Shown: positions 2,311 through 45,282 of the stretch, piece after piece
Layout of the letters: each line of letters begins with the position of its first letter
Position numbering within the stretch: position 1 is the first letter of the stretch
Source of the DNA: Candidatus Krumholzibacteriia bacterium
GTDB lineage: Bacteria; Krumholzibacteriota; Krumholzibacteriia; WVZY01; JAKEHA01
Assembly (NCBI GenBank): GCA_029865265.1
Contig: JAOUHG010000004.1
Span: 89,835 to 153,834 of the forward strand
DNA: 64,000 nt
Direction: 5' to 3'
The notes under the pieces: model-generated
Database searches by the model: none
Told to the model about the DNA's origin: nothing
The model's input: only the letters and a program-made list of their open reading frames with translations
Made by a program: the position numbers and the translations under genes

Positions 2311-2316
2311 GGGGGA

Positions 2317-4629: not shown

Positions 4630-4638
4630 GCGCTTCCC

Positions 4639-17038: not shown

Positions 17039-17048
17039 GAAACGCGGT

Positions 17049-17836: not shown

Positions 17837-17899
17837 TCGGGGTAATTCCCCCGGATTCCGCGTCGGGGTGTGGGGTTTCCGCTGATTCCTCGTGGGGTA

Positions 17900-17928
17900 T
17901 TGCGCGCGGCGGCGGGTGCTGGTAGCAT
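17900..17928 (+). promoter_or_regulatory. candidate promoter TTGCGC-N17-TAGCAT in 273-nt leader of the giant gene
   Basis: Sigma70-like spacing. Followed by an AT-rich patch tagtagttaatcaacc in GC-rich surroundings. Confidence 0.3.
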
Positions 17929-18108
17929 AGTAGTTAATCAACCCACAGCTCCAAGGGGCCGCCGCGGTGTGAGTTTGCCCGCCATGGTTGCCCAGGTGCC
18001 GGGCCTGCACGCGCGGGGCATGGGAGTTGCACGTTTGCCCTTAGGAACGTTCCGCCCCCACCCCGGTATTTGCAGATGCTCCCGTCCGTGAACAGGAATT
18101 TTGACGCA

Positions 18109-21100
18109 ATGAACCTCCCCCGCCTCCCGCGCGTCATCACGCTTGCGGCCACGCTGTCACTGGCGTGGGCGGGCGTGCCCGCGGCCGCACCGGGCAGCGG
18201 CACGGCGATTATATCTCCCACCACGATTGCCGCGGGTTCGAGCGGGACGTGGACGATCACCTATACCGCGACTGAGCCCTTCAAGGACGGCACGGTGCGG
18301 CTCACGATCCCGGCCGGATGGACGGCCCCGCAGAATGGGTCCCCCGTCAGTCCCGGCTACGTGTCCGTCTCCACCAACGAGCCAACCGGGAACCCGAGTT
18401 TGGCCCTCGGCGGCTCCCTCATAACGGTAACGGTCGACACGCTGACGGCGGCCAACACGATCACGATCACCTACGGTGTGGGTCCAACCGGCCTCGCACA
18501 GGCCGCCACCAACGACAGTACCTATACATTCGAAATCGCGTCGGACCCGGCGGGCACGGCGACGGCGCTGATTGCGACTTCGCCCACCGTGCAGGTGAAC
18601 CCTGCCGCGCCGGCCTATTTGACCGTTGCGCCCGACGACACCACGGTGACGGCGGGTGACTTCGCACACTACCGGCTCTTCGTCTTCGACACCTTCGGCA
18701 ATCGATCGCCGCTTCCCTCCAGTCGCACCGTCAACTTCTTCCCGACCCACGGGCAGTTCTATCTCACCGATGACGCAACGCCGATCGGCAGCGTGGTGAT
18801 TCCCGCGGCGCAGAGCTCGGTCGAGGTTCACTATCGCGCGACGCTTGCCACCACCGGCACCCCGCACCAGCTGGGGGCGCTGACCCTGACCGGATCGCCG
18901 CAGCTGGGCGGCTCGGCCGATGTCTCCGTGGTGGCGGGGCCGCTGAGCACGGGCAACTCGCTGATCTCGGCGACCACACCGGTGGTTGCCGACGGGATAT
19001 CGCAGAGTTCGGTGGAGGTGACCTCGCGCGACGCCTTCGGCAACCCGCGACAGGGGGATACGGTGACGCTGGGCGTCGACGGCAACGCGGATCCGACCGA
19101 CCCGGGCCCCACGACCGATGGTAACGGCAAAACGTCGGGTGTGGTGACGGACGAAACGGCCGAGACGGTCACGGTGTCGGCCTTCATCAACGCACAACTC
19201 ATCGCGGCGACCGCACCAATCGACTTCGTCGCCGGAGGTGTGAGCGGGGTCACCAGCACGGTGGACGCCACCACGCCGGTGGTTGCCAACGGGGTGGCGA
19301 CGAGTACGATCACGGTGACTGCACGCGATGCGCAGGGGAACCCGGTTTCCGGTCAGGTCGTGACGCTGGCCCTCCTGCCCACCGCCAACGCGGTGCTGAC
19401 GCAGCCGGGCGGCGTCACCAACGGGCTGGGCCAGGTGACGGGAACGCTCACCAGCACGGTGCCGGGGCCGCGCACGATCACGGCGGTGATTGGTGTGACA
19501 CCGCTGATTGACAACGCCGTCGTCAATTTCAACTCGGGGCCGCTGGCGAGCTTCCAGTGGACCGAAGTGGACGGAAATGCGGTGGCGGGGGTTGCGGAAA
19601 CGGTGCGGCTCACGGCGAAGGACGCGCTCGGGAACACGGTCACCGGTTACACCGGAACGGTGACACTGACGGCGTCCAGTGCGGGTTCGGGAACCGTTGC
19701 CTGGGCGTCGCTGGGCATCAACTCAACCGTACCCGCCGGGAACAACACCGCAACGTACACCTTCGCTCCGGGTGACAACGGGACCCTGCAACTCAGCGTT
19801 ACCGATACGCGCGCGGAGTCGATCCAGTTGACCGCGACGGATGGCGTTCCCACCGGCACGTCCGCGTCGATCCTCGTTGGCGCGGCCACAGCGGACAAGG
19901 TGGTGTTCGATGCGGGTAACAACCAGAGCGCCACGGTGAACACGTCGGTAGGAACCCCCCCGCGGGTCCTGGTGACCGACTTCTACAACAACCCGGTGGC
20001 GGGAGCGACGGTGACGTTCCGCGTGATCACAACCGTTACCGGCGTCGGGAGCGTCGATGTGACGGCGGGCGGCGGGGTGGATTCGACGGGGACGACGGAT
20101 GCAGGTGGCTATGTTGACTGCGATGTCTGGCGAATGGGGATCAACGCCGGGAACAACCGCCTGCGTGCGCTCATTTCGTCGGGCAGCGTACCAGGTTTCA
20201 CCTTCAACGCCACGGGCACGGCCGGAGCCGAGAACACGCTCAGCCTTTCTCCCCCCAGCCAGAGCGTCACGGTGGGGGCATTCCAGGTTGTCACGGCAAC
20301 GCTTACCGACGCGTTCGGCAATCCAAAGCCCAACACGCGCGTCGACATCGCGATCACCGCCGCCAACGGGGGCACGCTCGAGGCGGATCCAGGGCACACG
20401 ACGACCCAGCTCAGTCCGACGGCACGCTGGGGCAACACCGACGCGGCAGGCGTCACGACGGTTCGCTTCCGCGCGCCGTCAACCGCGGGCCTTCCCAATA
20501 CTGTCGATGCATCGACATCTGTTATCGGCCAGGGGAGTGTCGCCGATGTGGTGTACACATCGTCCGCCAGCGGTGCCACCAACCTACGCATCACGTTCCA
20601 GGGGGCGTCGACGGCCGCCGCGGGCACCTCCATCGAGTTTCTGGTGGAGGCAATCGATGGAAACCAGAACGTCGATGTCACCAACACGTCGCAGGTCAAT
20701 CTGACGCCCCAGGTTGGCAGTACGCTCGCCTTCAGCCTCGACGACCTCACATTTGAGACCACGCAGTTCAATCTGCAGAGCGGCGCGCGCACCATTTATG
20801 CGCGGGCGACGATGGCGGGGGATTGGAACATCACCGTCGATGGCAGCGGCCTGGGACCCGATACCAAACAGGTGTCGATTACCGACACGGGTGCCATCGA
20901 CCACTACGTCGTGACCACGGTGCCGTCGGTGGTGGCGGGTGTCACCTTCGACGTATCCGTGCAGGCGCGGGACGTCTACGACAACCTCGTGGTCGGTGCC
21001 AACAACGTCGTGAACCTCGTAGCCATCGACGATGTTACCACCAACCCTGCGCTCTCAACGCTGCTAGTCGCCCAGACCACGCTGTCCGGTGGCCTCGCCA

Positions 21101-24100
21101 CCCAGGCGGAGACTTACACCAGGGCTGAGTTGATGCGGGTGCGTGCGAGCGCTTCCGGCAAAGAGGGAATCAGCGGCGTTGTCAATGTGGCGGCTGCGCC
21201 GGCCTACCGCATCGCGAAGATCTCGGGCGACAATACAGGCGTCGCTGTTAGTGCCCCGCAGTTGCTCGAAGCGCAGGTGCTGGACGCGTTCGACAACCCG
21301 GTGGCCGGCCAGTCGGTGACCTTCGTGGTGATCGGTGGTGGGGGCAGCGTGTTGCCGGGAGCACCCAGCACTGGTGCGGCCGGCACCGCCCAGACCACAC
21401 TTACGACGGGGAGCACGCCGGGCAACAACCTGGTCAAGGCGACGATTCTCGATGAGAACCCGGCCAGCCTGGAGCGCGTCGACTATCTGGTGGAGACCGT
21501 GCCGGGCGGGGTTGCGTACTTCACGGTGGTGCCCGCCAAGTTCAATCCGATTGCGGGCGAGGCTGTCAATCTCACCGTGACCGCGTTTGATGCCGAGGAC
21601 AACGTTGTCTCGGACGACAACACCACCCAGATTCAACTCTCGTCGGGAAGTGGAACCGTCCAGTTCGGCGTGGCCACGGGCACGCTGGCGGCCGGGGTCT
21701 TCTCGACGACGGTAACGGACAACATCGCGGAGCAGTACACGGTGACGGCGGAGCTCTTCGGTGGCGGAGTGCCAACTGGGACAAGCGCGCCGGTTACCGT
21801 GGGGCATGCCCCGGCTTTTGCAGTCGTTTATGTGAGTGGTAACGCGAGCGGTGTTGCCGCCGGCTCGCAGCAGGTGCTGCAGGTGCGCGTGCGCGACGCG
21901 TATACCAACCCGGTGCCGGGTCAGCCGGTGACGTTCGCCGTGGCCAGCTCGCCGGGGGGCGCCACCATCACCGACGCGGTGGGCGATCCCAACGACGGCA
22001 TCACCACCACAAATGCCGCCGGTCTCGCGCAGGCCACGTTGAACACCTCGGCTGTTTCCGGCACGAACCAGGTCAATGCGCGCATTCTGGACGGGCTGCC
22101 GCCCGACCACCTCGTGCCGTTCACCGTGGACACGAGTCCCAATTCGGCTACGACGCTGCGCATCACCTTCCTCGGTCCCACGACGGTGGCGGCCGGGCAG
22201 ACGTCGTCGTTCAAGGTGGAGGCACTTGATGCCGGTCAGAACCTGGACACCTCGAACACCAGTCTGATCACGCTGACGCCGCAGACCGGGAGCAACCTCG
22301 ACTTCAGCCTGTCTGATTTCGCCGGGGGTCTCACCCAGTTCAATCTGGTGGGTGGCACGCGCACGATCTATGTGCAGGGGACGAAGACCGGCTCCTGGAA
22401 CATCACCGTGGATGACGGTCCGGGTGGCCTCGCGAGCGATACCAAGGGCATTACCGTCAACGACGCCGGCGTGGTGGACCACTACGTGGTCACGGCGCCG
22501 TCCAACGCCGTGGCGGGTGCCACCTGGAACGTTCTTGTCGAAGCGCGGGACGTGTACGACAACAAGGTGACGGGCGCCAGCAACCTGGTGAACCTCGCCG
22601 CGGTGCTCGCGTCGGACAGCACCAGTCTCGCCAGCTCCTCGCTGTCGGTGGGACAGGCAACCCTGACGGGCGGCTCGGTGGTCGTCAACGAGTTCTACAC
22701 ACGTGCGCAGGGAATCCGCGTGCGCGTGCGCGACGCGGGCAGCAAGGAGGGCTTCAGCGGGACGGTGCAGATCGGTGCGGCGATTGCCTACCAGGTGGTC
22801 AATGTCTCGGGCGACGGCATCGACATCGTGGCGGGCACCACTCGAACCCTGACAGGCAGAGTGGTCGACAGTTATAACAATCCCGTGCAGAACCAGACCG
22901 TGTCGTTCACCGCCGTGTCGGGTGGTGGTGACTTCGCCGGTGGCACTACGGCTCAAAGCGATATCAACGGCACGGTGGTCAAGGGCTTCAATACCGGGAA
23001 TGTCGTTGGCATCAACGTGGCCCGCGCGTCGATTCTGGACGGGAATCCCATCGGCGTGGAGACGACGGACTTCACCGTGAGCACCAAGGCGGGGGCGCTC
23101 GACAACTACGAAGTGGTACCGGTCGATCCGCTCAAGATCAATCTCGTCGCCAACGAAACCACCAGTGTGATCGCCCGCGCGCGCGACCAGTACAACAACT
23201 ACCGCATCCAGGACAATACCACCGTTGTGGGCCTGACAGCCACCGGGAGCGCCGTACTGGGTTCCGCGGGGGGAACCCTGGTGAACGGCGCGTTTACCAC
23301 CACGGTCCGCGACGATGTGGCGGAGACGTTCACCGTGACGGCTGAAACGGGCCTCGATTCGGGAACCAGCAACCCCTTCACGGTGTCGCCTGGCCCGCCG
23401 TACCGTATCGTCAAAGTCACGGCCGATCCGGTGAATGGACTGCCGGTCGGATTGCAGCAGCCTCTTGTGTCCGAGGTGCGCGATGAGTGGAACAACGCCG
23501 TCGGCGCGGGTGTCAGCGTCACCCATCTGATAGTTCAGGCGCCCGATCCAAGTGCCTATCTGCGTGACGCGGTGGGCGACACCACCGACGGCATTACCAC
23601 GACGGCGGCCAATGGGCGGGCGACGGCTCTACTGGGACCGGCCAACACGGCCGGTTTGAACCGCGTGTCGGCCACCATTCTCGATGGGAGCCCGTCGGGG
23701 CTCGAACGCGTGACGTACGACGTCAACACCGTGGCAGGTGGAATCGCGAAGTACCAGGTGACGATGGGCGCAACCAGCGCCACGGCGGGAACCGCGGTTT
23801 CGGTGAGTGTTCAGGCCCTCGATGCGAACGACAACCCGGTGGCCGACAACGGGACGCAGGTCGATCTGGCGGGGAATCCCGGCGCCGGGCTGATTTTCGC
23901 GGCAAACCCGCTTACGCTGAGTGGCGGCACGGCATCGACCACGGTGACGGCCAGCCTCGTGCAAACGTACGCCATTAAAGCGAGTTCGGTGCTGCAGCCC
24001 GCGGTGTCCGGCCAGGGTGCTTCCGTGGTCGTGTCGCCGGCCGCGCCCGCGGGCGTCATAACCGCCACGGCGACCGCGGACGTCATCACCGCCAACGGGA

Positions 24101-27100
24101 GCTCAGTAACGACACTCACCAGCAGCGTCATAAGGGATGCGTTCCTCAACCAGGTGCCGGCCGGCGGCGGGGTTACCGTGACGACGAGCGGTGGCGTGAT
24201 TCTGGGCACACAGCCCAAGATCATCGGCGCCAACGGACGCGTCTCCTTCGACCTGCGCTCGTCGACCACGCCCGGTCCGGTGACGGTTTCAATGACCAGC
24301 GTGGCCGGAACCGCGTTCGGGCAGAAGGTCATCCAGTTTGCGCAACCGGTGGCGTTCAACACCAGTCAGGGGCCGGTGCCGTCCATCGTGAAGCCCGGGG
24401 ACAATCTGCGCTTCCGCGTCGTCGTCGCCAACACCTCGAGCACGGCCGCCAACCTCACGACGGCCACCCGGTTTGCGTTTGCCGACGGCGTTCACACCTT
24501 CACTGCGTTCCTGGCGGCGCCGAAGACGGTCGCCGCCGCCGATACCGCGACGCTGGTGTTCAACAATACCACGCTGGACGCGGCGTTTGCGTCGGGCGCC
24601 TACACCCCGGTCGTCACGCTGATCGGAAACGACCAGTACGGTTCGGCGTTCAACGTCTCGAGCCCGCTGCCGCTCAATGCCGTGCAGGTTACAAGCATCG
24701 AGATCACGCTTATCAGCGCGCCTTCCCCGGTGAGCCGCGGCCAAACCCGCAACGTGAGCGTGAGCGTACGCAACAACGGCGCCACGCCGGCAAGTCTCAA
24801 CAACCTGACCCTGTCGTTCTCGCCCGGTGTGGGCGTGTACACGCCGGGAACGCCTTCCCCGGCGCTTCCCGTCCAGATCGCGGCGGGGAATACCGCGACG
24901 GTTGTCATTCCGGTCACCATTGAAACCGCCTCGGGCCTCGGCACCGATCAGATCGACGCGTTTGCCGAGGCCACGGTGGGCGGACAACCCGTCACCGACG
25001 ATTCGGCGGATCCGCATCCGTTGGGATCCTGGCAGATCGTTGCGCAGGCCAGCCTCGTGTATGCGCCGGGGTCGCTCACGCCGCCGGCGGCGTCGCGCGG
25101 CAAGTCCTACGGGTTCCAGATGGCGATTCAAAACACGGGCAGCGGCGTTGTCTCGTTGAGCCCCGCCCTTACCCGGCTTACCTTCACCGATGGCTCGCTC
25201 AATTTCTCAGCAGCGCCCGTGCAGGCTTACGCCATCCCCGGGGGCGCGACCCAGGTGCTGACTTTCGTCGACACGGCGATACCCGGCGGATTCGCCGCCG
25301 GGCCCGTCGACGTGGTTCTCGACGCGCAGGGCACGGACAATGGCGCCCCCTTCACCCAGTTGGTCTCGACAGCGGGCTCCGGCGACCAGTTGAACATCGT
25401 GACACCGGCGGTGCTCAGTGCCGTTGCGGGAACGTTGTCGCCGGTGCTCACGACACAGGGTGCCACGGCCACTTTCCAGGTTGCGGTCAACAACACGGGC
25501 GGGGCGACGGTGGACCTGTTCCCGGCGACGACGACGCTGTCCTTCACGGGATTCAACGCCAGCCTCGACCCGACCGGACCGACCTCAATCGGGCCGCTGG
25601 GAAACACGACGTTGCGCTTCATCGGCACTCCGGTCAGCGCGGGCAGCACGCCTCCGGGGAATTACTTCCCGCAGATCGACGTGGACGGCACCGAGAACGG
25701 GCTCGACTACGGTGCGTCGTTCGCGTCTCCCAGCAGCGTGAATGTCCAGGCGGCACCCGACATCCTGATTGCGGCCATCCTGCCCTCGCAGACCACCATC
25801 ACCACCGATCAGGCGCGGCGCATCCAGGTGCGCATGGTGGTGCAGAACAGTGGTGGTGCGACGGTCTCATTCACGTCGGCTTCGATCCGCATGTTCAGCG
25901 GTGCGGTTGAGCGCACCGCGCAGTTCGGTATCGCGCCCCCCTCCGCCTTCCAGGGTGGTGGCAACCTGGCGCCCGCGTCGGTGGACACACTGCTGTTCCA
26001 GGTGACCGACGTCGCCGGCCCCATGTCGGCCGGCCCGCTGACCATCGAGGGGCTGCTGAACGTGGAGGACACCGCCACCAGCCAGCCGATCACCACCAAC
26101 ACCAGCAACGGCGGCAAGGGCGCGCTCAGCGTGCAGACACCGGCCACGATCAACATCCTAGCGGTCACGCCCTCGTTGCCCACGGTGACCGCGGGAATGG
26201 ACCGGGATTTCACCATTCGCGCGCTGATCCGCAATGGCGGCCAGAGCGACGTGAATGTCAACGCCGCCGCGGCAACCCTGCAGTTCACCCCGCCGGGTGG
26301 CTGGGTGAGGACACCCCGCGCGACGCTCGGCAGCGGCAGCAACCTGCTGCAGGGCGGCGAGGTCGACACGCTCATCTTCGACGTGACCACCAGCGGCAGC
26401 GTGACCGGTATGGTCGGCATTGATGCCACCGTGGGTGGCACCGAGAGCAACAGCGCCCGCACGTTCAGCAACGCGTCGTCCGGTGCGGGCTCGATTGTGG
26501 TGCAGACGGCGGGGAACATCGTGGTCAGCGTCGTGTCGTCACGGGCGACCATTACCAGCGGCGCCAGCGTTCCCTGGACGCTCTCGGTGACGGTACAGAA
26601 CACGGGCGGGGCGGACGTCAATCTCGATCTCGGCGCCGCGGTTCTGGTGAGCTTCGGCGACGCCACAACCCCGCCGGTTCCGTCGGTTCCCCCGGTGCTG
26701 GCGGGTGGCGGAACGCTGCTTTCGGGGGGCGAGACCGATCAGTTTGTGATCGGCGTGCCGGTGGCGGGTGTCTATGGAACGCTCGGGCCGCAGAACATGC
26801 AGGTGCTCGTCACCGGGACCGAACTCAACTCGACTGTCGACAAGTTTGATAGTGATGCGGCGTCGGTCATCGTGCAGGCCGCGCCGGACGTCGCGTACAT
26901 ATCGCTCACGCCGTCGCCGGTCGCCAAGGGTGTTTCGGTGCCATTCGCTGTCACCGTTCGTAATCCGGTTGCGAACGGCGCCACACTCACGCTCGACCCT
27001 GTCACCACCCGTCTGCAGTTTGCGGGTGGCGCCTTCGACGCGGGGCTGGCGGGAGGGCCGGTGACGCTGGCGGCGCTCGAGCAGAAGACGCTGCTGTTCA

Positions 27101-34415: not shown

Positions 34416-34416
34416 C

Positions 34417-37400
34417 GTGTCCCGGCCGTCCGCTGCTGTCGAGAAGAAGTTGTCTCGCGATCTCACCGTAGTCGCGGAAGACTCCCAGCTGGGGCGGGTG
34501 CGGGATTTTGTGGTGGAAGTGTGCGAGGGGGCCGGATTCAGCCCGCGAGAGGTTTCCAACACCAAGCTGGCAGTCGACGAGGCGTGCACCAACATCATCA
34601 AGCACGCCTACGACGGTTCCGGGGAGCCGGGCAGCATCACCGTTATCGCCGAGATCGACTCCGGCAAGGTCAAGTTCCGGCTGCAGGATCGCGGCAAGCA
34701 CTTTGACTTTTCGGGTGTCAAGGATCCCGACCTCGACCAGTACGTCGAAACTGGCCGCAAGGGCGGCTTCGGCGTGTTCCTCATCAATCGCCTCATGGAC
34801 GGCGTGGAGTACCACGCCACCGACACCGGCAACGAACTGGTCCTCACCAAGCGCAGCCAGGCGACGTTCTCGGCCTCGGTGCTCCCCGGGAGACTCCCGG
34901 CGCGCGGCACGCTGCGCTTCAAGTTCATGGTGCGCGCCAGCAGTGGCCTGCTGGCGCTGGTCACGGTGATCGGCGTGGTCATGTTCGTGCGCCAGACGCA
35001 GGACATCAAGGCGCAGCAGGCCACGCAGTGGATTGAGAAGAGCCGCCTCACCGAGAGCCTGGCGCGGCGCAGCGTGTCGGCCCTGATGGACCCCAACGAG
35101 TACTCGCTGGAGCAAACCAACCTCACATCCGAACTGAGCAAGATGGTGGCGGCCAACGACGAGATTGCCTACGCGCGCGTCGTGGACGCCCTCGGGAACA
35201 TCCGTGCCTCCGCCACCGTGGACGAGGTGTTCCAGCCCTACCGCGCCCCGCAGGCGCAGCTGCTGCTGGACGACGGCCGAGTGACGTGGAGTCGCCTGGA
35301 GATGGACGGGCGCGGCGTGCGCGACATTGCGGTGAGCGTGTCGGTTCAGAACCCGGGTGGCGCGGCCTTCGACATCGGCGTGCTGCACCTGGGCGTATTC
35401 GAAGACGGCGTCGTGGGCGCCATCGAAGACACGCGCCTGCAGACCATGCTCCTGCTGGTGGCGCTGTTTGGCGTGGGCGTGCTGCTCATCCTGGGACTGG
35501 TGCAGGTGTTCGTGCGCCCCATCCAGATTCTCACCGACGGCGTGCGCGCCATCGGCGACGGCAATCTCGAGGGCAAGCTCGACGTGCGCGGCCCGGCCGA
35601 GATCGGTGCCATCGCCGGCGTGTTCAACGAGATCACCGAGAAGTTCAAGAAGGCGCAGACCTCGATCCTCGAGCAGGAAAAGATGCAGAAGGAAATCGAG
35701 GTGGCCAAGCAGATCCAGCAGTCGCTCCTGCCGCGCAATCGCCCGGAGATCTCCGGCTATGACATTGCGCCGCTATACCAGGCCGCGGCCGAGGTGGGCG
35801 GCGACTACTACGACTTCGTGCAGGTGGACGACGACACCATCGGCGTGGTGGTGGCCGACGTGTCGGGCAAGGGCGTTCCCGGGTCGCTGGTCATGACCAT
35901 GATCCGCACCGCGCTGCGCATGGAGGCGCGCGGCAACCGCAATGCGTCCGACGTGATGGCCAAGATGAACGCCTTCGTGACCGACGACATGAAGAAGGGC
36001 ATGTTCGTCACCATGTTCTACGTCATCCTCGACTCCAAGAATCGGGTGATCAGCTACGCCAGCGCCGGACACAATCCGATGATCCTCTATCGCCACGAGA
36101 CCAAGGAGACCTTCTTCCTCAACCCGCGCGGATTCCCGGTGGGCATCAGCCTCCCCGACGAATCCCTGTTCCGCCGTTCCATCAGTCTGGAGAAGATACG
36201 CCTCAAGAAGGACGACATGCTGGTGATCTACACCGACGGCGTCACCGAGGCCATGAACATGCGGCGCGACCAGTACGGCGAGGACCGCCTGGTGGACATG
36301 GTGCGCAGCTACGGACACATGTCGCCCGAGCAGTTCATTGCGCGTCTGGACGAGGACATCCGCCGCTTCACCGGCGACTACCCGCAGAGCGACGACATCA
36401 CCGTGGTGGCGGTGAAGGAAAAGATGACTGCGGACGACGTCCTGTTCGGCATCCGCCGCAAGCTCCTCGACCTGGTGGACGTGCAGGGCATGAGCGTCAA
36501 GGAGGCATGCCAGCAGATGCGCGTGTCGCCGGCCACCTACTACCGCTACAAGCGGCGCCTGGACCTGATGGGCGAGCGTGGCCTGCGCAACGACCAGTTG
36601 CGCGACGACATGAGCCTCAAGCGCGTGAGCCTGGAAGCGCGCAAGCGGATCATCCGCATCATCGTGGCCAATCCGGAGTTCGGCGCCAAGCGCATCACCA
36701 ACGAGTACAACGATGGCCGCGACGAGAACCAGCAAATCACCGAGCGCATGGTCTACGAGGAACTCAAGCGCCTGAACCTCAACACGCGCGACCTGCGCCT
36801 CGACTACCTGCGCCGCAACCGGCTCATCGACGAGGAAGGCAAACCGCTGCCGCCGGGTGCGCGCGAACCCGAGGCGGCGGGGCGCCCGTCAGAGGCGATC
36901 GACGAACTGCTGCGCGACATCCCCGGCGTTTCGCTGTCCCGGGACGCCGGCGAAGCAGCGGCGAAGCCCGCGCCCGAGACGGCGGATGCCGCGCGGACCC
37001 GCCCCGATGCCATGGGGGTGGCCGCGTCGTCCTCGGCCGGCATCACCGAGATTCGCCTCAACGGACACCTCGATTCCGCCTCCTCGGCCGGTCTCGAGAA
37101 ACGCCTGCGCGACATGATCGCCGCCGGCGCCACCCGCATCCTGGTGGACCTGAGCGACGTGTCGTACGTGTCCAGCGGTGGCTGGGGGATCTTCGTGGGT
37201 GAGGTGCACGGCCTGCGCAGTCGTGGCGGAGACATCGTGCTCTCCGGCATGACGCCCGAGGTCTACGATGTCTACGAACTGCTCGGCTTCGCCGACGTGT
37301 TGCGCGCATTCAAGTCCATTGCGGAGGCGCGCGAGTATCTGTCGCTTCCCGCCGATCAGCGCCCGGCACCGGGTCCGGGTCTCTCGCCCGATGAGGTGGC

Positions 37401-38640
37401 GGTGGCACACGGCCTCAGCGTCGAGCCCACGGACGTCGATGACACGCCGCGCGAATGGCAGAGCCTGCACGTGGAAGCCACCACGGTGGGCGAAAAGGGA
37501 GAGATCGCGGTTCTGTCGCTCGACGGCATCATCGACACGGTCAGCGCGGAGAAGTTGCGCGCGTCCGTCGACCAGATCATCTCCAACGGCCGCAACAAGA
37601 TCGTGGTGGACATGTCGCAGGTCGAGTACGTGTCCAGCGGTGGCTGGGGTGTCTTTACCGAGCGCCTGCGCGAGGTGCGCCGCGCGGGCGGCGACGTGAA
37701 GCTCTTCGGCATGGACCCCGACGTCTACTACGTGTTCACCATGCTCGGTTTCAACATCGTCCTGTCGTCGTTCGACATCCTCGTCGACGCCATCGAGGAC
37801 TTCCAGCGGCCCGCGCCGGCCATGGAGCATGATGGCGTCGATATCGCGCCGGTTCCGGTTGCGGATACGACGGACTACGAGGGGCGGGGACGCGTCGAGG
37901 CCAGCGTCCCCGGCATGGACATCGTATGGGAGGACGGGCCCGGTGGCATCCGCATCGCGCGCCTCTCGGGCATCATCGAGACCACGGCGGTCTCGCTGCT
38001 GGCCGACGAGATCGCCCGCGAGGTCGTGTCCGCACCGGAGGCGATCATCTTCGACCTGAGCCGCGTCGAGTACGTTTCCAGCGCCGGCTGGGGCCAGTTT
38101 GCGCATGCCTACGAGGGAGTGGGTGCGGTGGCGCTGGTGGGGCTGGATCCGGACCTGTACGAGGTCTACGAGTGTCTCGAGTTCCGGGCCTTCATTCGCG
38201 CCTACGCCACAGACGCGGAGGCCATTGTGGGGCTGGCCGGCGGCACCACCCCGCCGGCACCGGCGCCCGGGGCTCCGTCTGCGCAGGCGCCCGAGGCGGT
38301 GCGGCGCGACACGCACATGGACGGGATCGACGACGTCCTGGAGGGGGACACCGCGTCGCGGGTACCCGCACCGGACCCGTTCGACGGCGAGGCCTACCCG
38401 GCCCCGGCGCCCGCGGACCCCGAGGAGGAGCCGGAATGGCGCCACCGCTCGTGGGATGGGGTGGTCAAGCCCCCGGCCGACCTGGACGTAAACGCCTCCC
38501 GGCCGGACGAACGCGTGGATCAGGACCGAAAATTGCGTTCCATGGGCTGGGACTCCTATGGTGAGCGGCTGCGCAAGCGTTCCGGGGACGGCGGCGGTGG
38601 GGACGATGGCGGGGAGCCCGACGGGGGCGGCGACGCATGA
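34417..38640 (+). CDS. fused partner-switching megaprotein: RsbW/SpoIIAB-like Ser kinase (HATPase_c), TM, periplasmic segment, TM plus HAMP, PP2C/SpoIIE phosphatase, HTH, 3x STAS (anti-sigma antagonist) domains
   Basis: GTG 34417 lies 2 nt after the previous stop. N-terminus LAVDEACTNIIKHAY...GGFGVFLINRLMDGVEYH (anti-sigma kinase fold). Two hydrophobic helices. HAMP-like IQILTDGVRAIGDGNLEGKLDV. PP2C: QIQQSLLP...GGDYYDFV...VVADVSGKGVPGSL...YTDGVTEA. HTH: VKEACQQMRVSPATYYRYKRRL. Three STAS units, each with (D/V)(L/M)S.VEYVSS(G/A)GWG.F. Confidence 0.8.
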   Translation: MSRPSAAVEKKLSRDLTVVAEDSQLGRVRDFVVEVCEGAGFSPREVSNTKLAVDEACTNIIKHAYDGSGEPGSITVIAEIDSGKVKFRLQDRGKHFDFSGVKDPDLDQYVETGRKGGFGVFLINRLMDGVEYHATDTGNELVLTKRSQATFSASVLPGRLPARGTLRFKFMVRASSGLLALVTVIGVVMFVRQTQDIKAQQATQWIEKSRLTESLARRSVSALMDPNEYSLEQTNLTSELSKMVAANDEIAYARVVDALGNIRASATVDEVFQPYRAPQAQLLLDDGRVTWSRLEMDGRGVRDIAVSVSVQNPGGAAFDIGVLHLGVFEDGVVGAIEDTRLQTMLLLVALFGVGVLLILGLVQVFVRPIQILTDGVRAIGDGNLEGKLDVRGPAEIGAIAGVFNEITEKFKKAQTSILEQEKMQKEIEVAKQIQQSLLPRNRPEISGYDIAPLYQAAAEVGGDYYDFVQVDDDTIGVVVADVSGKGVPGSLVMTMIRTALRMEARGNRNASDVMAKMNAFVTDDMKKGMFVTMFYVILDSKNRVISYASAGHNPMILYRHETKETFFLNPRGFPVGISLPDESLFRRSISLEKIRLKKDDMLVIYTDGVTEAMNMRRDQYGEDRLVDMVRSYGHMSPEQFIARLDEDIRRFTGDYPQSDDITVVAVKEKMTADDVLFGIRRKLLDLVDVQGMSVKEACQQMRVSPATYYRYKRRLDLMGERGLRNDQLRDDMSLKRVSLEARKRIIRIIVANPEFGAKRITNEYNDGRDENQQITERMVYEELKRLNLNTRDLRLDYLRRNRLIDEEGKPLPPGAREPEAAGRPSEAIDELLRDIPGVSLSRDAGEAAAKPAPETADAARTRPDAMGVAASSSAGITEIRLNGHLDSASSAGLEKRLRDMIAAGATRILVDLSDVSYVSSGGWGIFVGEVHGLRSRGGDIVLSGMTPEVYDVYELLGFADVLRAFKSIAEAREYLSLPADQRPAPGPGLSPDEVAVAHGLSVEPTDVDDTPREWQSLHVEATTVGEKGEIAVLSLDGIIDTVSAEKLRASVDQIISNGRNKIVVDMSQVEYVSSGGWGVFTERLREVRRAGGDVKLFGMDPDVYYVFTMLGFNIVLSSFDILVDAIEDFQRPAPAMEHDGVDIAPVPVADTTDYEGRGRVEASVPGMDIVWEDGPGGIRIARLSGIIETTAVSLLADEIAREVVSAPEAIIFDLSRVEYVSSAGWGQFAHAYEGVGAVALVGLDPDLYEVYECLEFRAFIRAYATDAEAIVGLAGGTTPPAPAPGAPSAQAPEAVRRDTHMDGIDDVLEGDTASRVPAPDPFDGEAYPAPAPADPEEEPEWRHRSWDGVVKPPADLDVNASRPDERVDQDRKLRSMGWDSYGERLRKRSGDGGGGDDGGEPDGGGDA

Positions 38641-39374
38641 GGAAGCTGGCGATCATCACCTCCAAGGGCGGGACCGGCAAGACCACCACCGCCATCAATC
38701 TGGGGCACGGTCTTGCGCTGTGCGGCAAAAAAGTGCTGATCGTCGATTGCGATCCGCAGCGCAACGTGGCCATCGCCTTTGACGTGCGGGCGGGCAAGAC
38801 CCTGTGCAACCTGCTGCAACACGGCGAGGTGGAAGTAATCGAGGTGCGCAAGAACCTCTACGTGATCGATTCGGGTGGGCGCGAGCTGGCCGAGATCGAG
38901 ATGCTGCTGGCCTCGCAGTCGAGCCGCGACCGCCGGCTGGATCTGGCGCTCAAGAATTTGCGCGGGTGCGACGTCGTCATATGTGACTGTTCGCCCACGG
39001 TGAATCTGATCAACATCAACGCCATCGTCTTCGCCGACGAGGTGATCATTCCCGTGAGCATGGATTATCTGGCGCAGGCGGGAGCCCGTCAAACTATGCA
39101 GATTATCGATGAGATTAACGAGCACTCGGTGCGCAAGACGTCGATCATGGGCATCCTGCCCACTTTCTACGACTCGCGCACACGGCTCTCGGCCGACGTG
39201 CTCGGTTCGTTGCGGGAGCGTTTCGAGGAGAAGGTGTTCAAGAGCGTGATTCGCACCAATACGTCGTTGCGCGAGGCGCCGAGTTTTAACCAGACCATTT
39301 TCGAGTACTCGCCCATGTCGCGCGGTGCGTTCGACTACTATCAGTTGACCGAGGAAGTGCTGACCCGTGTCTGA
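38637..39374 (+). CDS. ParA/MinD-family P-loop ATPase
   Basis: ATGA overlap with the previous gene. Deviant Walker A KGGTGKTTTAINLG. DCDPQ motif. About 245 aa. Confidence 0.85.
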   Translation: MRKLAIITSKGGTGKTTTAINLGHGLALCGKKVLIVDCDPQRNVAIAFDVRAGKTLCNLLQHGEVEVIEVRKNLYVIDSGGRELAEIEMLLASQSSRDRRLDLALKNLRGCDVVICDCSPTVNLININAIVFADEVIIPVSMDYLAQAGARQTMQIIDEINEHSVRKTSIMGILPTFYDSRTRLSADVLGSLRERFEEKVFKSVIRTNTSLREAPSFNQTIFEYSPMSRGAFDYYQLTEEVLTRV

Positions 39375-39639
39375 ACGACGGCGCAAGTCCCTGGGGCGCG
39401 ATCCTTTCGAAGATAGCAAGGAATCGCACGAGACCGAGACGGTGAAGAAGCTCATCCGGGGCAAGTCGCCGCTTGCGCCCGACGCGCGCCAGGTCGAGGT
39501 CGTGGTACGGCTAACACCGGCAACGCTGAAGCACATCGACCGGGTGGCGGCGCAGCTCGCAGCGCGGGGACGCAAGATTTCGCGCGACGAACTGATTCGA
39601 ATCGCCATTTCGCTGCTGTCGGCGGAGGACGTCGTCTAG
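39367..39639 (+). CDS. small hypothetical protein (possible ParA partner, ribbon-helix-helix-like C-terminus)
   Basis: Overlaps the ParA-like stop. 90 aa. C-terminal ISRDELIRIAISLL resembles RHH/ParG-like partners. No homology is certain. Confidence 0.45.
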   Translation: MSERRRKSLGRDPFEDSKESHETETVKKLIRGKSPLAPDARQVEVVVRLTPATLKHIDRVAAQLAARGRKISRDELIRIAISLLSAEDVV

Positions 39640-39682
39640 TCATGTTGTGGACGGATGGCGCAAGTCGTATAGTAGGGGAGTC

Positions 39683-40819
39683 ATGAGAGGGGTTACGGCA
39701 ATGGAGAGCTACGACCATCGTAGCGAAATCCAGTCCAGCGGAACGCGCTACCTGATTCAGTCGAGTCTGGTGCCGGCGCAGCGTGCCGTGGTGACGTCGC
39801 TGTTTCTCGAGGGTGCGCTGCTCTCCCGGCACACCGAGCGCTACGAGGGAGAACTGACCCCGGACGCCATGCGCGGCCTGGTGCGCCGTGCGCACGACAC
39901 CTACCGGCTGCGCCTGACCTCGCTGCTCGATCTGCGCGACCGTCTCAAGAAGGACGTGGATGGCCGCGCCCACCTCAAGCTGGGCGAGGCCCTGTACGGG
40001 GAGCGTCTGTTTCGCGAGGCCATGGCGGAGGTCATCCGCTCCATCAAGCTGGGGCTGGAGGACGCGGTTGGCTATTCCATCCTCGGAAACTGCCTGTTGT
40101 CGGTCGGCGACAGCGAGAAGGCGGTGCGCGCCTTCCAGAAGGGGCTGGAACTGGCCCCGGCCTACGCAGACCTGCACAACGACCTGGGCGTGGCCTACCT
40201 CAAGGCCGATCGCTGCCGCGACGCGGCGGCGTGTTTCGAACGCGCCCTCGAGATCAATCGCTATTACCAGAAGGCGCTGATGAACCTGGCGCTGGCGCTC
40301 GCCCGTAACGTGGTCCTCAAGCAGGACTACGACCTGTCGCGTGACCTGCGCGCACGCCTGCGGCGAATTCTGGACCTGAATATCCAGCTCCGGCCGCAAC
40401 TCGAGGGCGAGGACTTCCGGGAGGCGGTGAAGGCGCTCGATGTCGAGCGCTATGACACCGTGTTCGAACGCCTGGCCAAGATCAAGGAAGAGCTGGACAC
40501 GACCGCGGCCAACGATCTGTCCCTGGAAATCTACCTCATCCTGAAGTTCCGGGCCGACGAGCTGACGGAGGGTGACATCGACGGGCTGATCGAGCGTCTC
40601 AATGCGGAACTGGAGGCAAACCCGGGCTTCGCCGACATCCACAACGATCTGGGCGTCCTGTATGCTGCAAAATGCAAGATCCTCGTGGACCAGGCCCACG
40701 AGGCATTCCGACAGGCGCTGGCGCGAAATCCCAACTTCAAGAAGGCGGAAAAGAACCTCCGGCTGGCAGCTAACGATAGGCAGGGCATACACTTCCTGCT
40801 GAAGGCGCTATTGGACTAG
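39683..40819 (+). CDS. tetratricopeptide-repeat protein
   Basis: ATG 39683 preceded by AGGGGAG. Repeated AxxxxxxALxxxPxxxxAxxNLGxxY units (AVRAFQKGLELAPAYADLHNDLGVAYL, AAACFERALEINRYYQKALMNLALAL, AHEAFRQALARNPNFKKAEKNL). Confidence 0.7.
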   Translation: MRGVTAMESYDHRSEIQSSGTRYLIQSSLVPAQRAVVTSLFLEGALLSRHTERYEGELTPDAMRGLVRRAHDTYRLRLTSLLDLRDRLKKDVDGRAHLKLGEALYGERLFREAMAEVIRSIKLGLEDAVGYSILGNCLLSVGDSEKAVRAFQKGLELAPAYADLHNDLGVAYLKADRCRDAAACFERALEINRYYQKALMNLALALARNVVLKQDYDLSRDLRARLRRILDLNIQLRPQLEGEDFREAVKALDVERYDTVFERLAKIKEELDTTAANDLSLEIYLILKFRADELTEGDIDGLIERLNAELEANPGFADIHNDLGVLYAAKCKILVDQAHEAFRQALARNPNFKKAEKNLRLAANDRQGIHFLLKALLD

Positions 40820-40850
40820 CTCTTGCTTATGCCGGGGTTGAGGCAAACTC

Positions 40851-41249
40851 ATGGAAAAACTGATTATCTCCGAAGAGCGTACCAACGCTGCCAACCCGGT
40901 TTCCGTGCTTACCCTGCGCGGTACCATCGAGACGACCAATGCCTCGGGACTCGAGGAGACGCTGGAGCGGATCGTCAACGAGAGCTGCTACCGCATCGTC
41001 GTCGATCTGGGCAGTGTCAGCTACATCAGCTCGGCCGGGTGGGGCATCTTCATCAGCGAGATCAAGCGCATCCGGCGCAACGGCGGCGACATCAAGCTTG
41101 CCGGCATGATGCCCGAGGTGCGCGAGGTATTCGATCTGCTCGAGTTTGGCAACATACTGAAACCGTTCATGAAGACGTCTGAGGCGATTCGTGACTTCGA
41201 AGTTGCGACCGACTCGGGAACACAAGGCGGACCGGCCGGTCGCCGATAG
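40851..41249 (+). CDS. STAS-domain anti-sigma-factor antagonist (RsbV/SpoIIAA-like)
   Basis: SVLTLRGTIETTNASGLEETLERIV...RIVVDLGSVSYISSAGWGIFISEI...DIKLAGMMPEVREVFDLL. Confidence 0.85.
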   Translation: MEKLIISEERTNAANPVSVLTLRGTIETTNASGLEETLERIVNESCYRIVVDLGSVSYISSAGWGIFISEIKRIRRNGGDIKLAGMMPEVREVFDLLEFGNILKPFMKTSEAIRDFEVATDSGTQGGPAGRR

Positions 41250-41284
41250 CGCGCGCGGCGGTCTCATTGCGGGGGATCAAGACC

Positions 41285-41659
41285 ATGGCTGTTGATGGAA
41301 TCGTAGTCAGCGTCACAACCGGCAGTAACGGCGCGGGCGTCTCCGTGCTCAAGGTGAGTGGCTACCTGGACACGACGACCGCGAGCGAACTCGAGACGGC
41401 GCTTTACGGCCTGCTCGATCGCGAGTCGTACCGTATCGTGGTGGACCTCTCCGGCGTCAACTACATCAGCTCCGCTGGCTGGGGCATCTTCATCGGTGAG
41501 ATCAAGCGCATCCGCAACCACGGTGGCGACCTCAAGCTGGCGGGCATGGTGGGCGACGTCCACGAGGTGTTCCAACTGCTCGAATTCCACTCCATCCTGG
41601 AGGCTTTCGGGACCACCGCCGAGGCGATTGACGCATTCAAGTCGAAGAGCGCCGGCTGA
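41285..41659 (+). CDS. STAS-domain anti-sigma-factor antagonist, paralog of previous
   Basis: ATG 41285 preceded by GGGGGA (TTG 41267 is an alternative). VLKVSGYLDTTTASELETALY...RIVVDLSGVNYISSAGWGIFIGEI...DLKLAGMVGDVHEVFQLL. Confidence 0.85.
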   Translation: MAVDGIVVSVTTGSNGAGVSVLKVSGYLDTTTASELETALYGLLDRESYRIVVDLSGVNYISSAGWGIFIGEIKRIRNHGGDLKLAGMVGDVHEVFQLLEFHSILEAFGTTAEAIDAFKSKSAG

Positions 41660-41685
41660 GCCGGGCGCTGTGAATCTGTGCTCCC

Positions 41686-41723
41686 TTCGGGGCCGCGCCG
41701 ACCGCGCGGCCCCGATTTGTTTC
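41686..41723 (+). terminator. Rho-independent terminator of the STAS gene; its T-tract is the IS target site
   Basis: cggggccgcg ccgac cgcggccccg hairpin followed by atttgtttc. The same atttgtttc recurs at 42936-42944 after the IS. Confidence 0.5.
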
Positions 41724-45210: not shown

Positions 45211-45282
45211 CCGCCCCGGCTGTTTTACGGTTGCGCCGGGGAGCCGCGCGCGCTACACTGCCATGCGAGGTGGTGGTGTGGT

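Follow-up and report, generated by a model that had tools for sequence, protein, structure and literature searches.

How very large surface adhesins are sensed and regulated in T9SS bacteria is poorly understood, and the only T9SS regulators known to us are PorXY, a two-component system, and SigP, a sigma factor. T9SS carriers can stay bound to an adhesin and link it to the periplasmic machinery, as in SprF–SprB and PorP–PorE(TPR)–PG1035, and in PorP–PorE the barrel has a TPR component attached to it in the periplasm. Classical RsbW, RsbV, and RsbU proteins act on sigma factors, whereas three other modules that combine an RsbW-type kinase, a PP2C phosphatase, and STAS proteins, namely Bordetella BtrU/V/W, which controls the T3SS, Vibrio fischeri SypE–SypA (biofilm polysaccharide), and the Anabaena Hep-layer module, have an envelope or secretion output and not (only) a sigma factor. 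Chlamydia RsbU, RsbV, and RsbW are separate polypeptides, with neither an outer-membrane partner gene nor a giant cargo, and with no fused kinase, HTH, or STAS domain. In FecA–FecR–FecI, an outer-membrane barrel signals through a periplasmic extension to an inner-membrane regulator of transcription.

A sequence-only reading of the 64-kb stretch of DNA analysed here (the window), which comes from an uncultured Krumholzibacteriota-type bacterium, proposed that genes for T9SS cargo and PorV are joined to an RsbU/V/W-type module, a combination of which it knew no described example. The literature searched, on partner switching with T9SS, on PorV with TPR or anti-sigma proteins, on T9SS in Krumholzibacteriota and Latescibacteria, and on PorV2, does not describe this linkage. 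The physical linkage of giant T9SS-type cargo and PorV-family barrel to an RsbU/V/W-type module proved to be real and kept in related genomes, though the barrel is not the PorV orthologue and ParA cannot be a general localiser. Recurrence of the linkage in several phyla points to a connection, not described before, of cell signalling with a giant surface fibre. The locus is a compact cross-phylum unit of giant CTD-bearing cargo, PorV-type barrel, membrane kinase/phosphatase, and STAS proteins, and it offers a concrete, testable wiring diagram. We give slightly less than an even chance to the view that the string is an operon-like unit whose centre is an ancient pair of genes, a partner-switching cassette that spans the envelope and is coupled to a giant surface protein of T9SS type.

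Layout of the gene string and its giant surface protein

The 23.5-kb operon-like string (18109–41659) comprises eight to nine co-directional genes, eight of them with listed coordinates, all on the + strand; this agrees with the earlier description, to which a 90-aa ORF, previously left unnamed, is added. The junctions are, in order, −1, +1, −4, −8, +7, +31, and +35 nt, and the three overlaps reported earlier (32530–32534, 38637–38640, and 39367–39374) were exact. An intrinsic terminator (41687–41715, + strand) closes the string, with a 12-bp stem containing 11 G–C pairs, followed by AUUUGUUU (tail TTTGTTT), and a folding energy of −41.4 kcal/mol (z = −2.9 against shuffles). It is the sole strong terminator-like site within 33–47.5 kb, and weak terminator-like sites within the string were no more frequent than in shuffles. 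A hairpin followed by a T-run also lies 3′ of the second free STAS gene in four other loci (L001, L020, L029, and L032). With every junction between −8 and +35 nt and one strong terminator at the end, the operon-like anatomy supports one unit.

The string's single long intergenic gap is a 272-nt leader 5′ of the giant gene (17837–18108, + strand), which is a candidate promoter region. The leader had been described as promoter-containing; the leader exists, but scans of it for sigma-70-type promoters and for the Bacteroidetes-type TAnnTTTG motif found none, and an Rfam scan gave no family. It contains an AT-richer island at about 17918–17945 and two weak 22-nt direct repeats (17846–17867 and 17876–17897), which alone are not significant and whose motif, GATTCCNCGTNGGGGT, is not enriched in the rest of the 64-kb window. 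Co-directionality is common here, with almost all genes from 430 to 52851 on the + strand. The same-strand ORF at 41678–42871 was rejected as a member of the string, as it is part of an inserted IS element.

The first gene (18109–32532, +) encodes a protein of 4,807 aa with a signal peptide, Ig repeats, CARDB-like repeats, a unique C-terminal region, and a T9SS type-A CTD. A phmmer windowed self-comparison delimited approximately 18 Big_1/invasin-type Ig repeats (residues ~210–2030; Pfam Big_1, 103 bits; Invasin_D3, 78 bits) and approximately 20 CARDB-like repeats of ~120 aa (residues ~2030–4560), and a comparison of the protein with itself by BLASTP returned nothing. The N-terminus is basic and is followed by a hydrophobic segment at residues 9–27, in MNLPRLPRVITLAATLSLAWAGVPAAA, so that by hydropathy a Sec signal peptide is predicted. 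At the other end, FlgD_ig (PF13860) matches residues 4723–4794 with 34.4 bits (cutoff 27) and TIGR04183 Por_Secre_tail scores 28.1 bits (cutoff 23), which identifies the protein as a predicted T9SS type-A cargo by its C-terminal sorting domain; the orthologous giants score 23.0, 21.8, and 20.3 bits against TIGR04183, at or just under the cutoff of 23. The last 500 aa are conserved at 25–66% identity directly 5′ of the barrel gene in Krumholzibacteriia-type, L043, Calditrichota, KSB1, and Cytophagia-labelled loci, and a search of metagenomes with the N-terminal 500 aa, made to compare the 5′ boundary, found no relatives. T9SS core genes (SprA/Sov, PorK–N/GldK–N, PorU, and canonical PorV) were not found among the approximately 45 ORFs of the 64-kb window.

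The predicted one-polypeptide partner switch and conservation of its linkage

The third gene (34417, with a GTG start, to 38640, +) encodes a predicted inner-membrane megaprotein of 1,407 aa, in which Pfam and NCBIfam confirmed the earlier domain calls, as they did elsewhere in the string. It contains, in order, an RsbW-type Ser kinase (residues 20–145), a first transmembrane segment (170–194), a periplasmic single-Cache domain (~195–340), a second transmembrane segment (339–373), HAMP (364–406), a PP2C/SpoIIE phosphatase (471–667), a transposase-type HTH with a winged-HTH (680–800), and three STAS domains with the motif Y-V-S-S-[AG]-G-W-G at 917, 1071, and 1219, followed by an acidic tail. 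The kinase, PP2C, and STAS motifs are all intact: the kinase (HATPase_c_2, 97.7 bits) has the N-box EACTNIIKH (E55, N59, and H63), DRGKHF, and GGFGVFLI, and the phosphatase (SpoIIE, 162.7 bits) has GGDYYD, DVSGKG, TDG, and DDIT. An AF2 model of the Cache domain (pLDDT 89.6) matched WalK first in Foldseek, and also KinD, DctB, DcuS, CitA, and the periplasmic domain of Chlamydia RsbU (6mab).

Two free STAS proteins are encoded at the end of the string. STAS1 (40851–41249, +; 132 aa; motif YISSAGWG) scores 67.7 bits for STAS and 61.5 bits for TIGR00377 (cutoff 53.45), and STAS2 (41285, or alternatively TTG 41267, to 41659, +; 124 aa from the ATG at 41285) scores 67.8 bits for STAS. The megaprotein and both free proteins exceed the TIGR00377 cutoff, and all five STAS domains, the megaprotein's three and the two free ones, carry Y-[IV]-S-S-[AG]-G-W-G with its conserved phosphorylatable Ser. 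STAS2 is the free STAS protein kept across phyla, with 50–59% identity to Calditrichota, KSB1, and Cytophagia-type free STAS proteins. No sigma-factor domain was found in the genes of the cluster or in approximately 35 further ORFs of the window. The cluster has no other obvious output gene.

The module resembles BtrU/V/W, SypE–SypA, and the Anabaena module in its RsbW-type kinase, PP2C phosphatase, and STAS domains, and SypE likewise carries kinase and phosphatase on one polypeptide. Unlike those systems, however, the megaprotein lacks a REC domain, sits in the membrane, takes its input through Cache and HAMP, and carries an HTH module as well as three fused STAS domains, and the string pairs it with an outer-membrane barrel and a T9SS-type cargo rather than T3SS or polysaccharide. 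With RsbU–RsbV–RsbW of Chlamydia, likewise Gram-negative, the module shares a transmembrane PP2C that has a periplasmic Cache-type sensor and works with an RsbW kinase and STAS proteins. The megaprotein's unusual natural fusion of all partner-switch components with a DNA-binding module is useful for learning how partner switches are insulated and read out.

Conservation was surveyed in 61 related loci, all from uncultured MAGs. Of the 57 loci that include upstream DNA, 56 have the barrel–TPR gene immediately 5′ of the kinase/phosphatase gene. The sole exception (L050) is an assembly gap, and one of the 56 (L028) is a truncated, rearranged copy, so neither was accepted as a true exception to the adjacency. 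The gap between the two genes is 5–135 nt, with two outliers of 266 and 1143 nt (tblastn). The adjacency is kept down to 25–36% identity, in MAGs labelled Krumholzibacteriia, Latescibacteria, Bacteroidota, Calditrichota, KSB1, FCPU426, and Spirochaetia, and recurrence in dozens of divergent genomes takes the arrangement far beyond chance. The giant gene and in-cluster STAS genes were both present in 15 loci and both absent from 17, with no mixed case in either direction (0/0), counts that are not phylogenetically independent; the co-occurrence spans sequence identities down to 25–40%, and two more long-read MAGs have both. Gene neighbourhoods in relatives, which the earlier reading had named as a check, thus retain the linkage.

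Loci with both giant and STAS genes belong to Krumholzibacteriota, Calditrichota, KSB1, and a Cytophagia-labelled MAG. Such loci are followed by unrelated housekeeping genes (MetH, Obg, and Icd), and the conserved unit there is therefore the giant, barrel, kinase/phosphatase, and STAS genes. The barrel and kinase/phosphatase pair, in turn, is the ancient conserved core: it occurs with no giant or STAS gene nearby in 17 loci, and Bacteroidota-labelled and FCPU426-type MAGs have it by itself amid housekeeping genes, so the barrel is tied primarily to the signalling protein. STAS domains flagged by tblastn inside KSB1-type megaproteins were rejected, as Pfam gives TPRs there and STAS is a separate downstream gene.

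These data bear on whether two modules merely travel together, the giant and barrel as a cargo/carrier pair and the kinase/phosphatase, STAS, and ParA genes as an unrelated regulatory operon that might control a sigma factor encoded elsewhere, their synteny being a frozen accident. The entire 52-kb region is co-directional, the cluster has no sigma factor or defined output, pairs of cargo and carrier genes are a known T9SS design, and sigma factors are the targets of the classical Rsb proteins. However, when the giant and the kinase/phosphatase separate in evolution, the barrel stays with the kinase/phosphatase; their adjacency persists to 25–36% identity across phylum-level labels while all other neighbours change; and the genes meet in 1-nt overlaps or gaps, without a terminator inside the string. 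We thus regard independent modules as quite unlikely.

A probable PorV/PorQ-family barrel with a TPR arm

The second gene (32532–34415, +) encodes a 14-strand beta-barrel (residues ~70–306) with an NPA-containing plug segment at the N-terminus and, fused at the C-terminus, a helical/TPR arm of ~320 aa that is predicted to be periplasmic. With its 14 strands and N-terminal plug, the barrel has PorV or FadL as its nearest solved structure; PorV came first in both fold searches, and PorV and FadL scored above BamG. The barrel scored 22.1 bits against the PorV equivalog NF033710 (cutoff 250), 51.7 bits against PorQ (cutoff 220), and 46.8 bits against PorV2 (cutoff 325), and distant orthologues reached 33–50 bits against NF033710. 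Against the PorV/PorQ family NF033709 (cutoff 90), it scored 89.3 bits, 0.7 bit under the cutoff, and orthologues scored 132.1 (L049), 129.3 (L058), 103.4 (L035), and 69.7 (L054); one homologue (P0040) is named ‘PorV/PorQ family protein’ by NCBI. The barrel is probably a PorV/PorQ-family paralogue and is not the PorV orthologue, and the earlier term ‘PorV–TPR fusion’ is thus appropriate at the level of family and fold but not of orthology (22 bits against a cutoff of 250).

As with PorV, SprF–SprB, and PorP–PorE(TPR)–PG1035, the gene of a very large surface protein with a CTD, type A-like in this string, lies next to one for a 14-strand outer-membrane barrel of the FadL fold, and the TPR part, separate in PorP–PorE, is fused to the barrel here. 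In contrast to those carriers, the barrel probably belongs to the PorV/PorQ family without being an orthologue of PorV, PorQ, or PorP, and it is invariably partnered by a signalling protein of kinase/phosphatase type, a partner that described T9SS carriers do not have. PorV/PorQ-family barrels also occur in organisms without T9SS (spirochaetes). The primary role of the barrel need not involve T9SS cargo, because the core pair occurs in the 17 loci where no giant or STAS gene is nearby and in FCPU426-type genomes. A conserved partner outside the secretion machinery broadens the possible roles of this barrel family, perhaps also in genomes where the barrel is annotated merely as ‘TPR protein’ or ‘hypothetical’.

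In a ligand-gated scheme, the FadL/PorV-type barrel would be an uptake channel for a hydrophobic or small signal molecule, the Cache domain would bind that molecule, and the partner switch would regulate the adhesin along with other genes, so that the giant protein is a regulated target rather than part of the sensor. Single-Cache domains usually bind small ligands. An uptake channel, however, does not need a ~320-aa arm of TPRs, a protein–protein interaction module; PorV was the first match in both fold searches; WalK, the top match of the Cache domain, is regulated through protein partners; and the scheme does not explain why giant and STAS genes co-occur perfectly or why the giant gene is always next to the barrel gene. 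Ligand gating is therefore, in our judgement, unlikely. A sensor of outer-membrane integrity or assembly, with the barrel as an accessory subunit like BamG of the Bacteroidota BAM, signalling envelope stress to the partner switch, and the giant protein as a throttled client, appears very unlikely: BamG is outscored by PorV and FadL, no BAM genes lie nearby, and the strict giant/STAS co-occurrence is again not explained.

Proposed signalling scenario and the lineage-specific ParA, RHH-like, and TPR genes

For a partner-switching unit coupled to the giant protein, we propose the following scenario. The Cache sensor of the inner-membrane protein, through HAMP, would control a PP2C phosphatase that opposes the RsbW-type kinase on the same polypeptide, and in this lineage, Calditrichota, KSB1, and relatives, the cassette may have gained STAS substrates and the giant gene directly upstream. 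T9SS would export the giant protein, and the neighbouring PorV-type barrel would carry or anchor it. The TPR arm of the barrel may then contact the Cache domain, so that the balance of kinase and phosphatase responds to the load or state of the barrel and fibre. Whether the five STAS domains bind the RsbW domain would depend on their phosphorylation, and this would gate the output, most likely the HTH/winged-HTH DNA-binding module of the megaprotein itself, although a membrane-tethered HTH as output is a conjecture. Gene order, domains, intact catalytic and phospho-acceptor motifs, folds, and the conserved linkage are observed directly, whereas we infer the TPR–Cache contact, the signal, and the output. 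Secretion or display of the giant protein may be under the control of the partner switch.

In its specific form, the scenario describes a trans-envelope device of FCB-type bacteria not recognised before: a PorV-family carrier barrel, by way of its periplasmic TPR arm, would inform a one-polypeptide partner switch directly of how a giant T9SS fibre is loaded or of its mechanical state. We consider this form less likely than not. If fibre-state sensing were true, T9SS would gain its first regulatory circuit coupled to secretion or the surface, and the device would be the first ‘cell-surface signalling’ by Ser phosphorylation and partner switching rather than by anti-sigma proteolysis. FecA–FecR–FecI is a functional analogue only, as the protein families are unrelated: it uses a TonB-dependent, 22-strand barrel with an anti-sigma factor and an ECF sigma factor, whereas a 14-strand PorV-type barrel, a TPR arm, and Ser kinase, phosphatase, and STAS domains are found here.

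In Krumholzibacteriia, ParA may also be part of the output together with the RHH-like and TPR proteins, a trio that could place the complex along the nucleoid. The ParA gene (38637–39374, +) overlaps the megaprotein gene by 4 nt and encodes a ParA/Soj-type deviant Walker-A ATPase of 245 aa with the P-loop SKGGTGKT (Pfam AAA_31, 128 bits, plus CbiA), whose best solved relative is Thermus Soj (1wcv; E 7e-42, full length); it did not reach the NF041546 ParA_partition equivalog (89 of 180). The 90-aa ORF (39367–39639, +), which overlaps parA by 8 nt, has the basic N-terminal peptide KKSLGRDPFED and a beta–alpha–alpha pattern, and its C-terminus is probably a ribbon–helix–helix, RHH_1 being matched below threshold in 10 of 11 homologues (best E 8e-4). 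The protein, with 41–73% identity across 14 loci, is a candidate ParG-like partner of ParA. ParF–ParG and VirC1–VirC2 of the Agrobacterium T4SS likewise comprise a small Soj-like ATPase followed by an overlapping gene for a small, probable RHH protein with a basic N-terminus, and VirC1/VirC2 is a precedent for a ParA/RHH-type pair serving a secretion apparatus. In contrast to those pairs, the present one lies within a signalling operon in one clade only; no centromere-like repeat array was found, only the two weak 22-nt repeats of the leader; and some loci, those of deep Krumholzibacteriales, have ParA but no RHH partner.

The ParA, RHH-like, and TPR genes occur only in Krumholzibacteriia-type loci, some of which (L030 and L048) lack them, and are lineage-specific additions. 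ParA-driven localisation, suggested by the earlier reading, is therefore not a general mechanism, since ParA is confined to these loci and absent from some, and within them it is speculative. The TPR protein gene (39647–40819, +) encodes 390 aa as an ORF, with the true start probably 7–19 codons downstream, and the product (TPR_1/2/11 matches) is predicted to be cytoplasmic, with no signal peptide or transmembrane segment. The ‘Rosetta-stone’ idea that this protein equals the C-terminal TPR block of KSB1-type megaproteins was not relied on, because the similarity is generic TPR similarity (E 6e-4, single comparison). In Krumholzibacteriia-type loci, the TPR protein is encoded 3′ of ParA, with 32–82% identity.

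Conservation of the barrel and kinase/phosphatase gene pair

The scan with the megaprotein (the 1,407-aa kinase/phosphatase protein, 34417–38640), retaining one genome per species, gave 61 loci, which were searched by tblastn with all window proteins. A homologue of the barrel-TPR gene lay immediately 5′ of the kinase/phosphatase gene, on the same strand, in 56 of the 57 loci with upstream DNA; the lone exception (L050) has a stretch of N in that position, and the 56 include one locus (L028) in which the barrel gene is truncated beside a rearrangement. The adjacency persists down to 25–31% identity for the barrel and 35–41% for the kinase/phosphatase, extends to MAGs with the labels Bacteroidota, Calditrichota, KSB1, FCPU426, and Spirochaetia, and is accompanied by the same architectures in the distant loci according to Pfam and NCBIfam annotation. 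The central proposal of the sequence-only reading, a physical link of giant T9SS-type cargo and a PorV-type barrel to an RsbU/V/W-type module, is supported: the linkage persists among relatives, whose loci would have had to lack it throughout for the proposal to fail.

Type 1 loci have the order giant gene, barrel-TPR, kinase/phosphatase, and STAS. They comprise every Krumholzibacteriia- or Latescibacteria-labelled locus with enough sequence, L043, one Calditrichota-, one KSB1-, and one Cytophagia-labelled MAG, and two long-read MAGs. The genes 3′ of STAS in the non-Krumholzibacteriia Type 1 loci are unrelated housekeeping genes (MetH, Obg, and Icd), and the conserved unit is therefore the four genes. 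In Type 2 loci, only the barrel and kinase/phosphatase pair is present, amid housekeeping genes, with HflX on the 5′ side and RNase R and hisD close by, and the kinase/phosphatase is shorter (775–877 aa) and lacks STAS domains. Where the flanking sequence sufficed, 15 loci had giant and STAS genes together, 17 had neither, and 0 had one without the other, counts that are phylogenetically non-independent. Set beside an adjacency kept across these phylum labels, two unrelated modules with a frozen synteny would be a quite improbable explanation. The pair forms the evolutionary core, with the barrel acting jointly with the signalling protein, whatever its activity. Bacteroidota-labelled pair-only loci (L035:12291-17346, also L038 and L046) carry a conserved trio 3′ of the kinase/phosphatase gene. 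Its products are a GDSL lipase, a barrel of the canonical FadL/Toluene_X kind, and a protein of 612–677 aa in which a DUF1080/3-keto-disaccharide-hydrolase domain is accompanied by a faint M6-metalloprotease signal.

Components of the gene string

The giant protein (4,807 aa) has a hydrophobic signal segment at the N-terminus, Big_1/invasin-type Ig repeats (residues ~210–2030), CARDB-like repeats of ~120 aa each (residues ~2030–4560), and a unique C-terminal region with a sorting domain of T9SS type A at its end (TIGR04183, 28.1, cutoff 23; FlgD_ig, 34.4, cutoff 27). It is the least conserved component of the cluster, its last 500 residues excepted. Against the PorV/PorQ family model, which has a cutoff of 90, the barrel-TPR protein (627 aa) reached 89.3 bits; against the equivalogs it reached only 22 bits for PorV (cutoff 250), 52 for PorQ (cutoff 220), and 47 for PorV2 (cutoff 325). 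The earlier designation PorV thus holds as a family relationship but not as orthology, and the barrel is probably a PorV/PorQ-family paralogue distinct from PorV itself. Because spirochaetes without T9SS also possess barrels of this family, membership is no proof of T9SS function. Profile matches at E ≤ 1e-30 gave 745 representatives of the barrel-TPR family (50% clustering), mostly of 600–690 aa. The AlphaFold model, built with 47 homologues as input (pLDDT 80.9), has a 14-strand barrel (residues 71–306) followed by helical hairpins and TPRs over ~320 residues, and this C-terminal arm should be periplasmic because the strand number is even, judging from how outer-membrane barrels are generally arranged. 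A rival reading, which we consider highly improbable, makes the barrel a BamG-related sensor of outer-membrane stress.

The megaprotein starts with GTG at 34417, 1 nt past the stop of the barrel gene, and comprises an RsbW-type kinase, two TM segments on either side of a periplasmic domain of ~145 aa, HAMP, PP2C, a transposase-type HTH joined to a winged-HTH, three STAS domains, and an acidic tail. All catalytic motifs of its kinase and phosphatase are intact, and Y-[IV]-S-S-[AG]-G-W-G, including the canonical phospho-serine position, occurs in each of the cluster's five STAS domains. The periplasmic domain was modelled (pLDDT 89.6) as a single Cache/PDC fold, to which the closest solved folds are those of WalK/YycG, KinD, DctB, DcuS, and CitA. 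Chlamydia RsbU is likewise a membrane PP2C with a periplasmic Cache sensor, and its periplasmic domain appears lower in the list of fold matches. In another rival reading, which we regard as unlikely, the barrel serves as an uptake channel that supplies a ligand to a ligand-binding Cache domain.

The free STAS protein is the best-kept component, with 50–59% identity between phyla, and neither STAS1 nor STAS2 has a signal peptide or TM segment. In KSB1-type long kinase/phosphatase proteins, C-terminal TPRs occur instead of STAS domains. A winged-HTH-like motif, ‘NPxxGxxKIxxELN...LNLNTR’, of the type seen at the N-termini of IS481/IS630-type transposases, is present inside every megaprotein orthologue examined (36630–36820 in the window, residues ~740–800), and it recurs C-terminally in the free STAS proteins from Calditrichota/KSB1/Cytophagia-type loci (loci listed, L049:13270-13953; L056:14079-14792; L058:14115-14768; L043:12572-13252). 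Its distribution suggests a DNA-binding or docking module under STAS control.

The ParA protein has a deviant Walker A motif and matches Thermus Soj (E 7e-42). The following 90-aa ORF (39367–39639, + strand), left out of the earlier gene list, which otherwise stands, encodes a conserved basic N-terminal peptide, KKSLGRDPFED, and a C-terminus with the beta-alpha-alpha pattern of ribbon-helix-helix (RHH) proteins; RHH_1 matches were sub-threshold in 10 of 11 homologues. The TPR protein has neither a signal peptide nor a TM segment. These three genes occur only in Krumholzibacteriia-type loci. Within that type, all three are missing from L030 and L048, where the two STAS genes come straight after the gene for a kinase/phosphatase of 814 aa, and the deeper-branching loci keep ParA and the TPR protein and lack the RHH-like gene. 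ParA, named by the sequence-only reading as part of the linked system, is thus present in the string but is not shared by the linked loci at large, and the ParA module is an accessory specific to one clade.

Proposed signalling across the envelope

In Bordetella, the Btr partner switch controls secretion. Partner switches also govern surface structures, as SypE/SypA does in Vibrio and as a recent example from Anabaena illustrates. T9SS carrier barrels remain attached to adhesins and are encoded beside their cargo, like the giant gene and barrel here, and PorP functions together with the TPR protein PorE. The literature searched described no link between a T9SS component and partner switching, no partner-switching protein with an outer-membrane barrel as its constant partner, and no single protein combining kinase, Cache, HAMP, PP2C, HTH, and STAS. 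Public annotation names the cassette proteins ‘TPR repeat protein’, ‘hypothetical’, ‘anti-sigma factor antagonist’, and ‘SpoIIE family phosphatase’. The cassette is real and conserved, and the lineages that carry it are uncultured.

We tentatively favour, with slightly less than even confidence, the reading that the locus is an envelope-spanning signalling cassette coupled in several phyla to a giant surface protein and STAS substrates. The analysis shows the anatomy of the locus, the folds, the intact motifs, and the conservation. As the most economical mechanism, we propose the following four-part scheme, in which we infer the TPR–Cache contact, the signal that it carries, and the output. 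The barrel may be the dedicated carrier or anchor of the giant protein, considering that T9SS carriers stay bound to adjacently encoded adhesins and the PorP–PorE precedent. Its TPR arm would touch the Cache domain, and HAMP would respond to this contact by altering how active PP2C is compared with the RsbW kinase fused to it. The STAS phosphorylation state set in this way would gate an output. Because no sigma factor was found anywhere in the window, the output is most plausibly the HTH/winged-HTH module of the megaprotein itself, and in the Krumholzibacteriia clade it may additionally involve ParA, RHH-like, and TPR proteins.

Boundaries and neighbouring elements

Nearly all window genes between 430 and 52851 are on the + strand, and the G+C content is 62–74%. 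Proteins closely related to those of the window are encoded in MAGs with the label Candidatus Krumholzibacteriia or Latescibacteria, and a 163-kb JGI metagenome contig encodes a protein 100% identical to the megaprotein. The string comprises nine genes, all on the + strand within 18109–41659, with junctions of −1, +1, −4, −8, +7, +31, and +35 nt; the coordinates and overlaps first read from the sequence proved exact. A hairpin lies at its end (41687–41715; 12-bp G+C-rich stem and T-run; −41.4 kcal/mol, z −2.9). The leader, described at first as promoter-containing, is indeed a 272-nt gap (17837–18108), but no sigma-70-type or Bacteroidetes-type promoter motif was detected in it, and an Rfam scan gave zero family matches. 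Two 22-nt direct repeats, 30 nt apart, with the core GATTCCnCGTnGGGGT, lie in the leader at 17846–17897; the motif is not enriched in the rest of the window and could be a binding site for the HTH or the RHH-like protein, or chance.

A 1,212-bp insertion sequence (41724–42935) is inserted exactly in the terminator U-tail, with 25-bp terminal inverted repeats (21/25 matching), a 9-bp target duplication (ATTTGTTTC), and one ORF (ATG, 41774–42871) with a weak IS1-family match (41 bits vs. a cutoff of 100). It is also present at the identical site in the closest relative (L001) and absent from the remaining loci. The genes at 42979–46983 encode a vWA membrane protein with two TM segments (743-aa ORF) and a 566-aa lamin-tail-domain protein with a weak FlgD_ig/T9SS-like tail, and they lie 3′ of STAS2 in all Krumholzibacteriia-type loci; the pair appears to be a unit apart from the string. 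Just 5′ of it is a conserved GGTGTATATAcTGTCG motif (window copy ~42980–42995) containing the sole TATATA of the 64 kb. This motif is a candidate promoter, in which case the true vWA start would lie 3′ of 42979. Directly 5′ of the leader are three consecutive genes for CBM48/AMPK glycogen-binding proteins (15053–17038, 16932–17468, and 17465–17836). Furthermore, three large ORFs without a Pfam family (626, 770, and 439 aa) occupy 430–5958, and the sub-threshold CHU_C (T9SS type-B CTD) match of the third (25.6 bits vs. a cutoff of 27) hints at more T9SS-type cargo in this genome.
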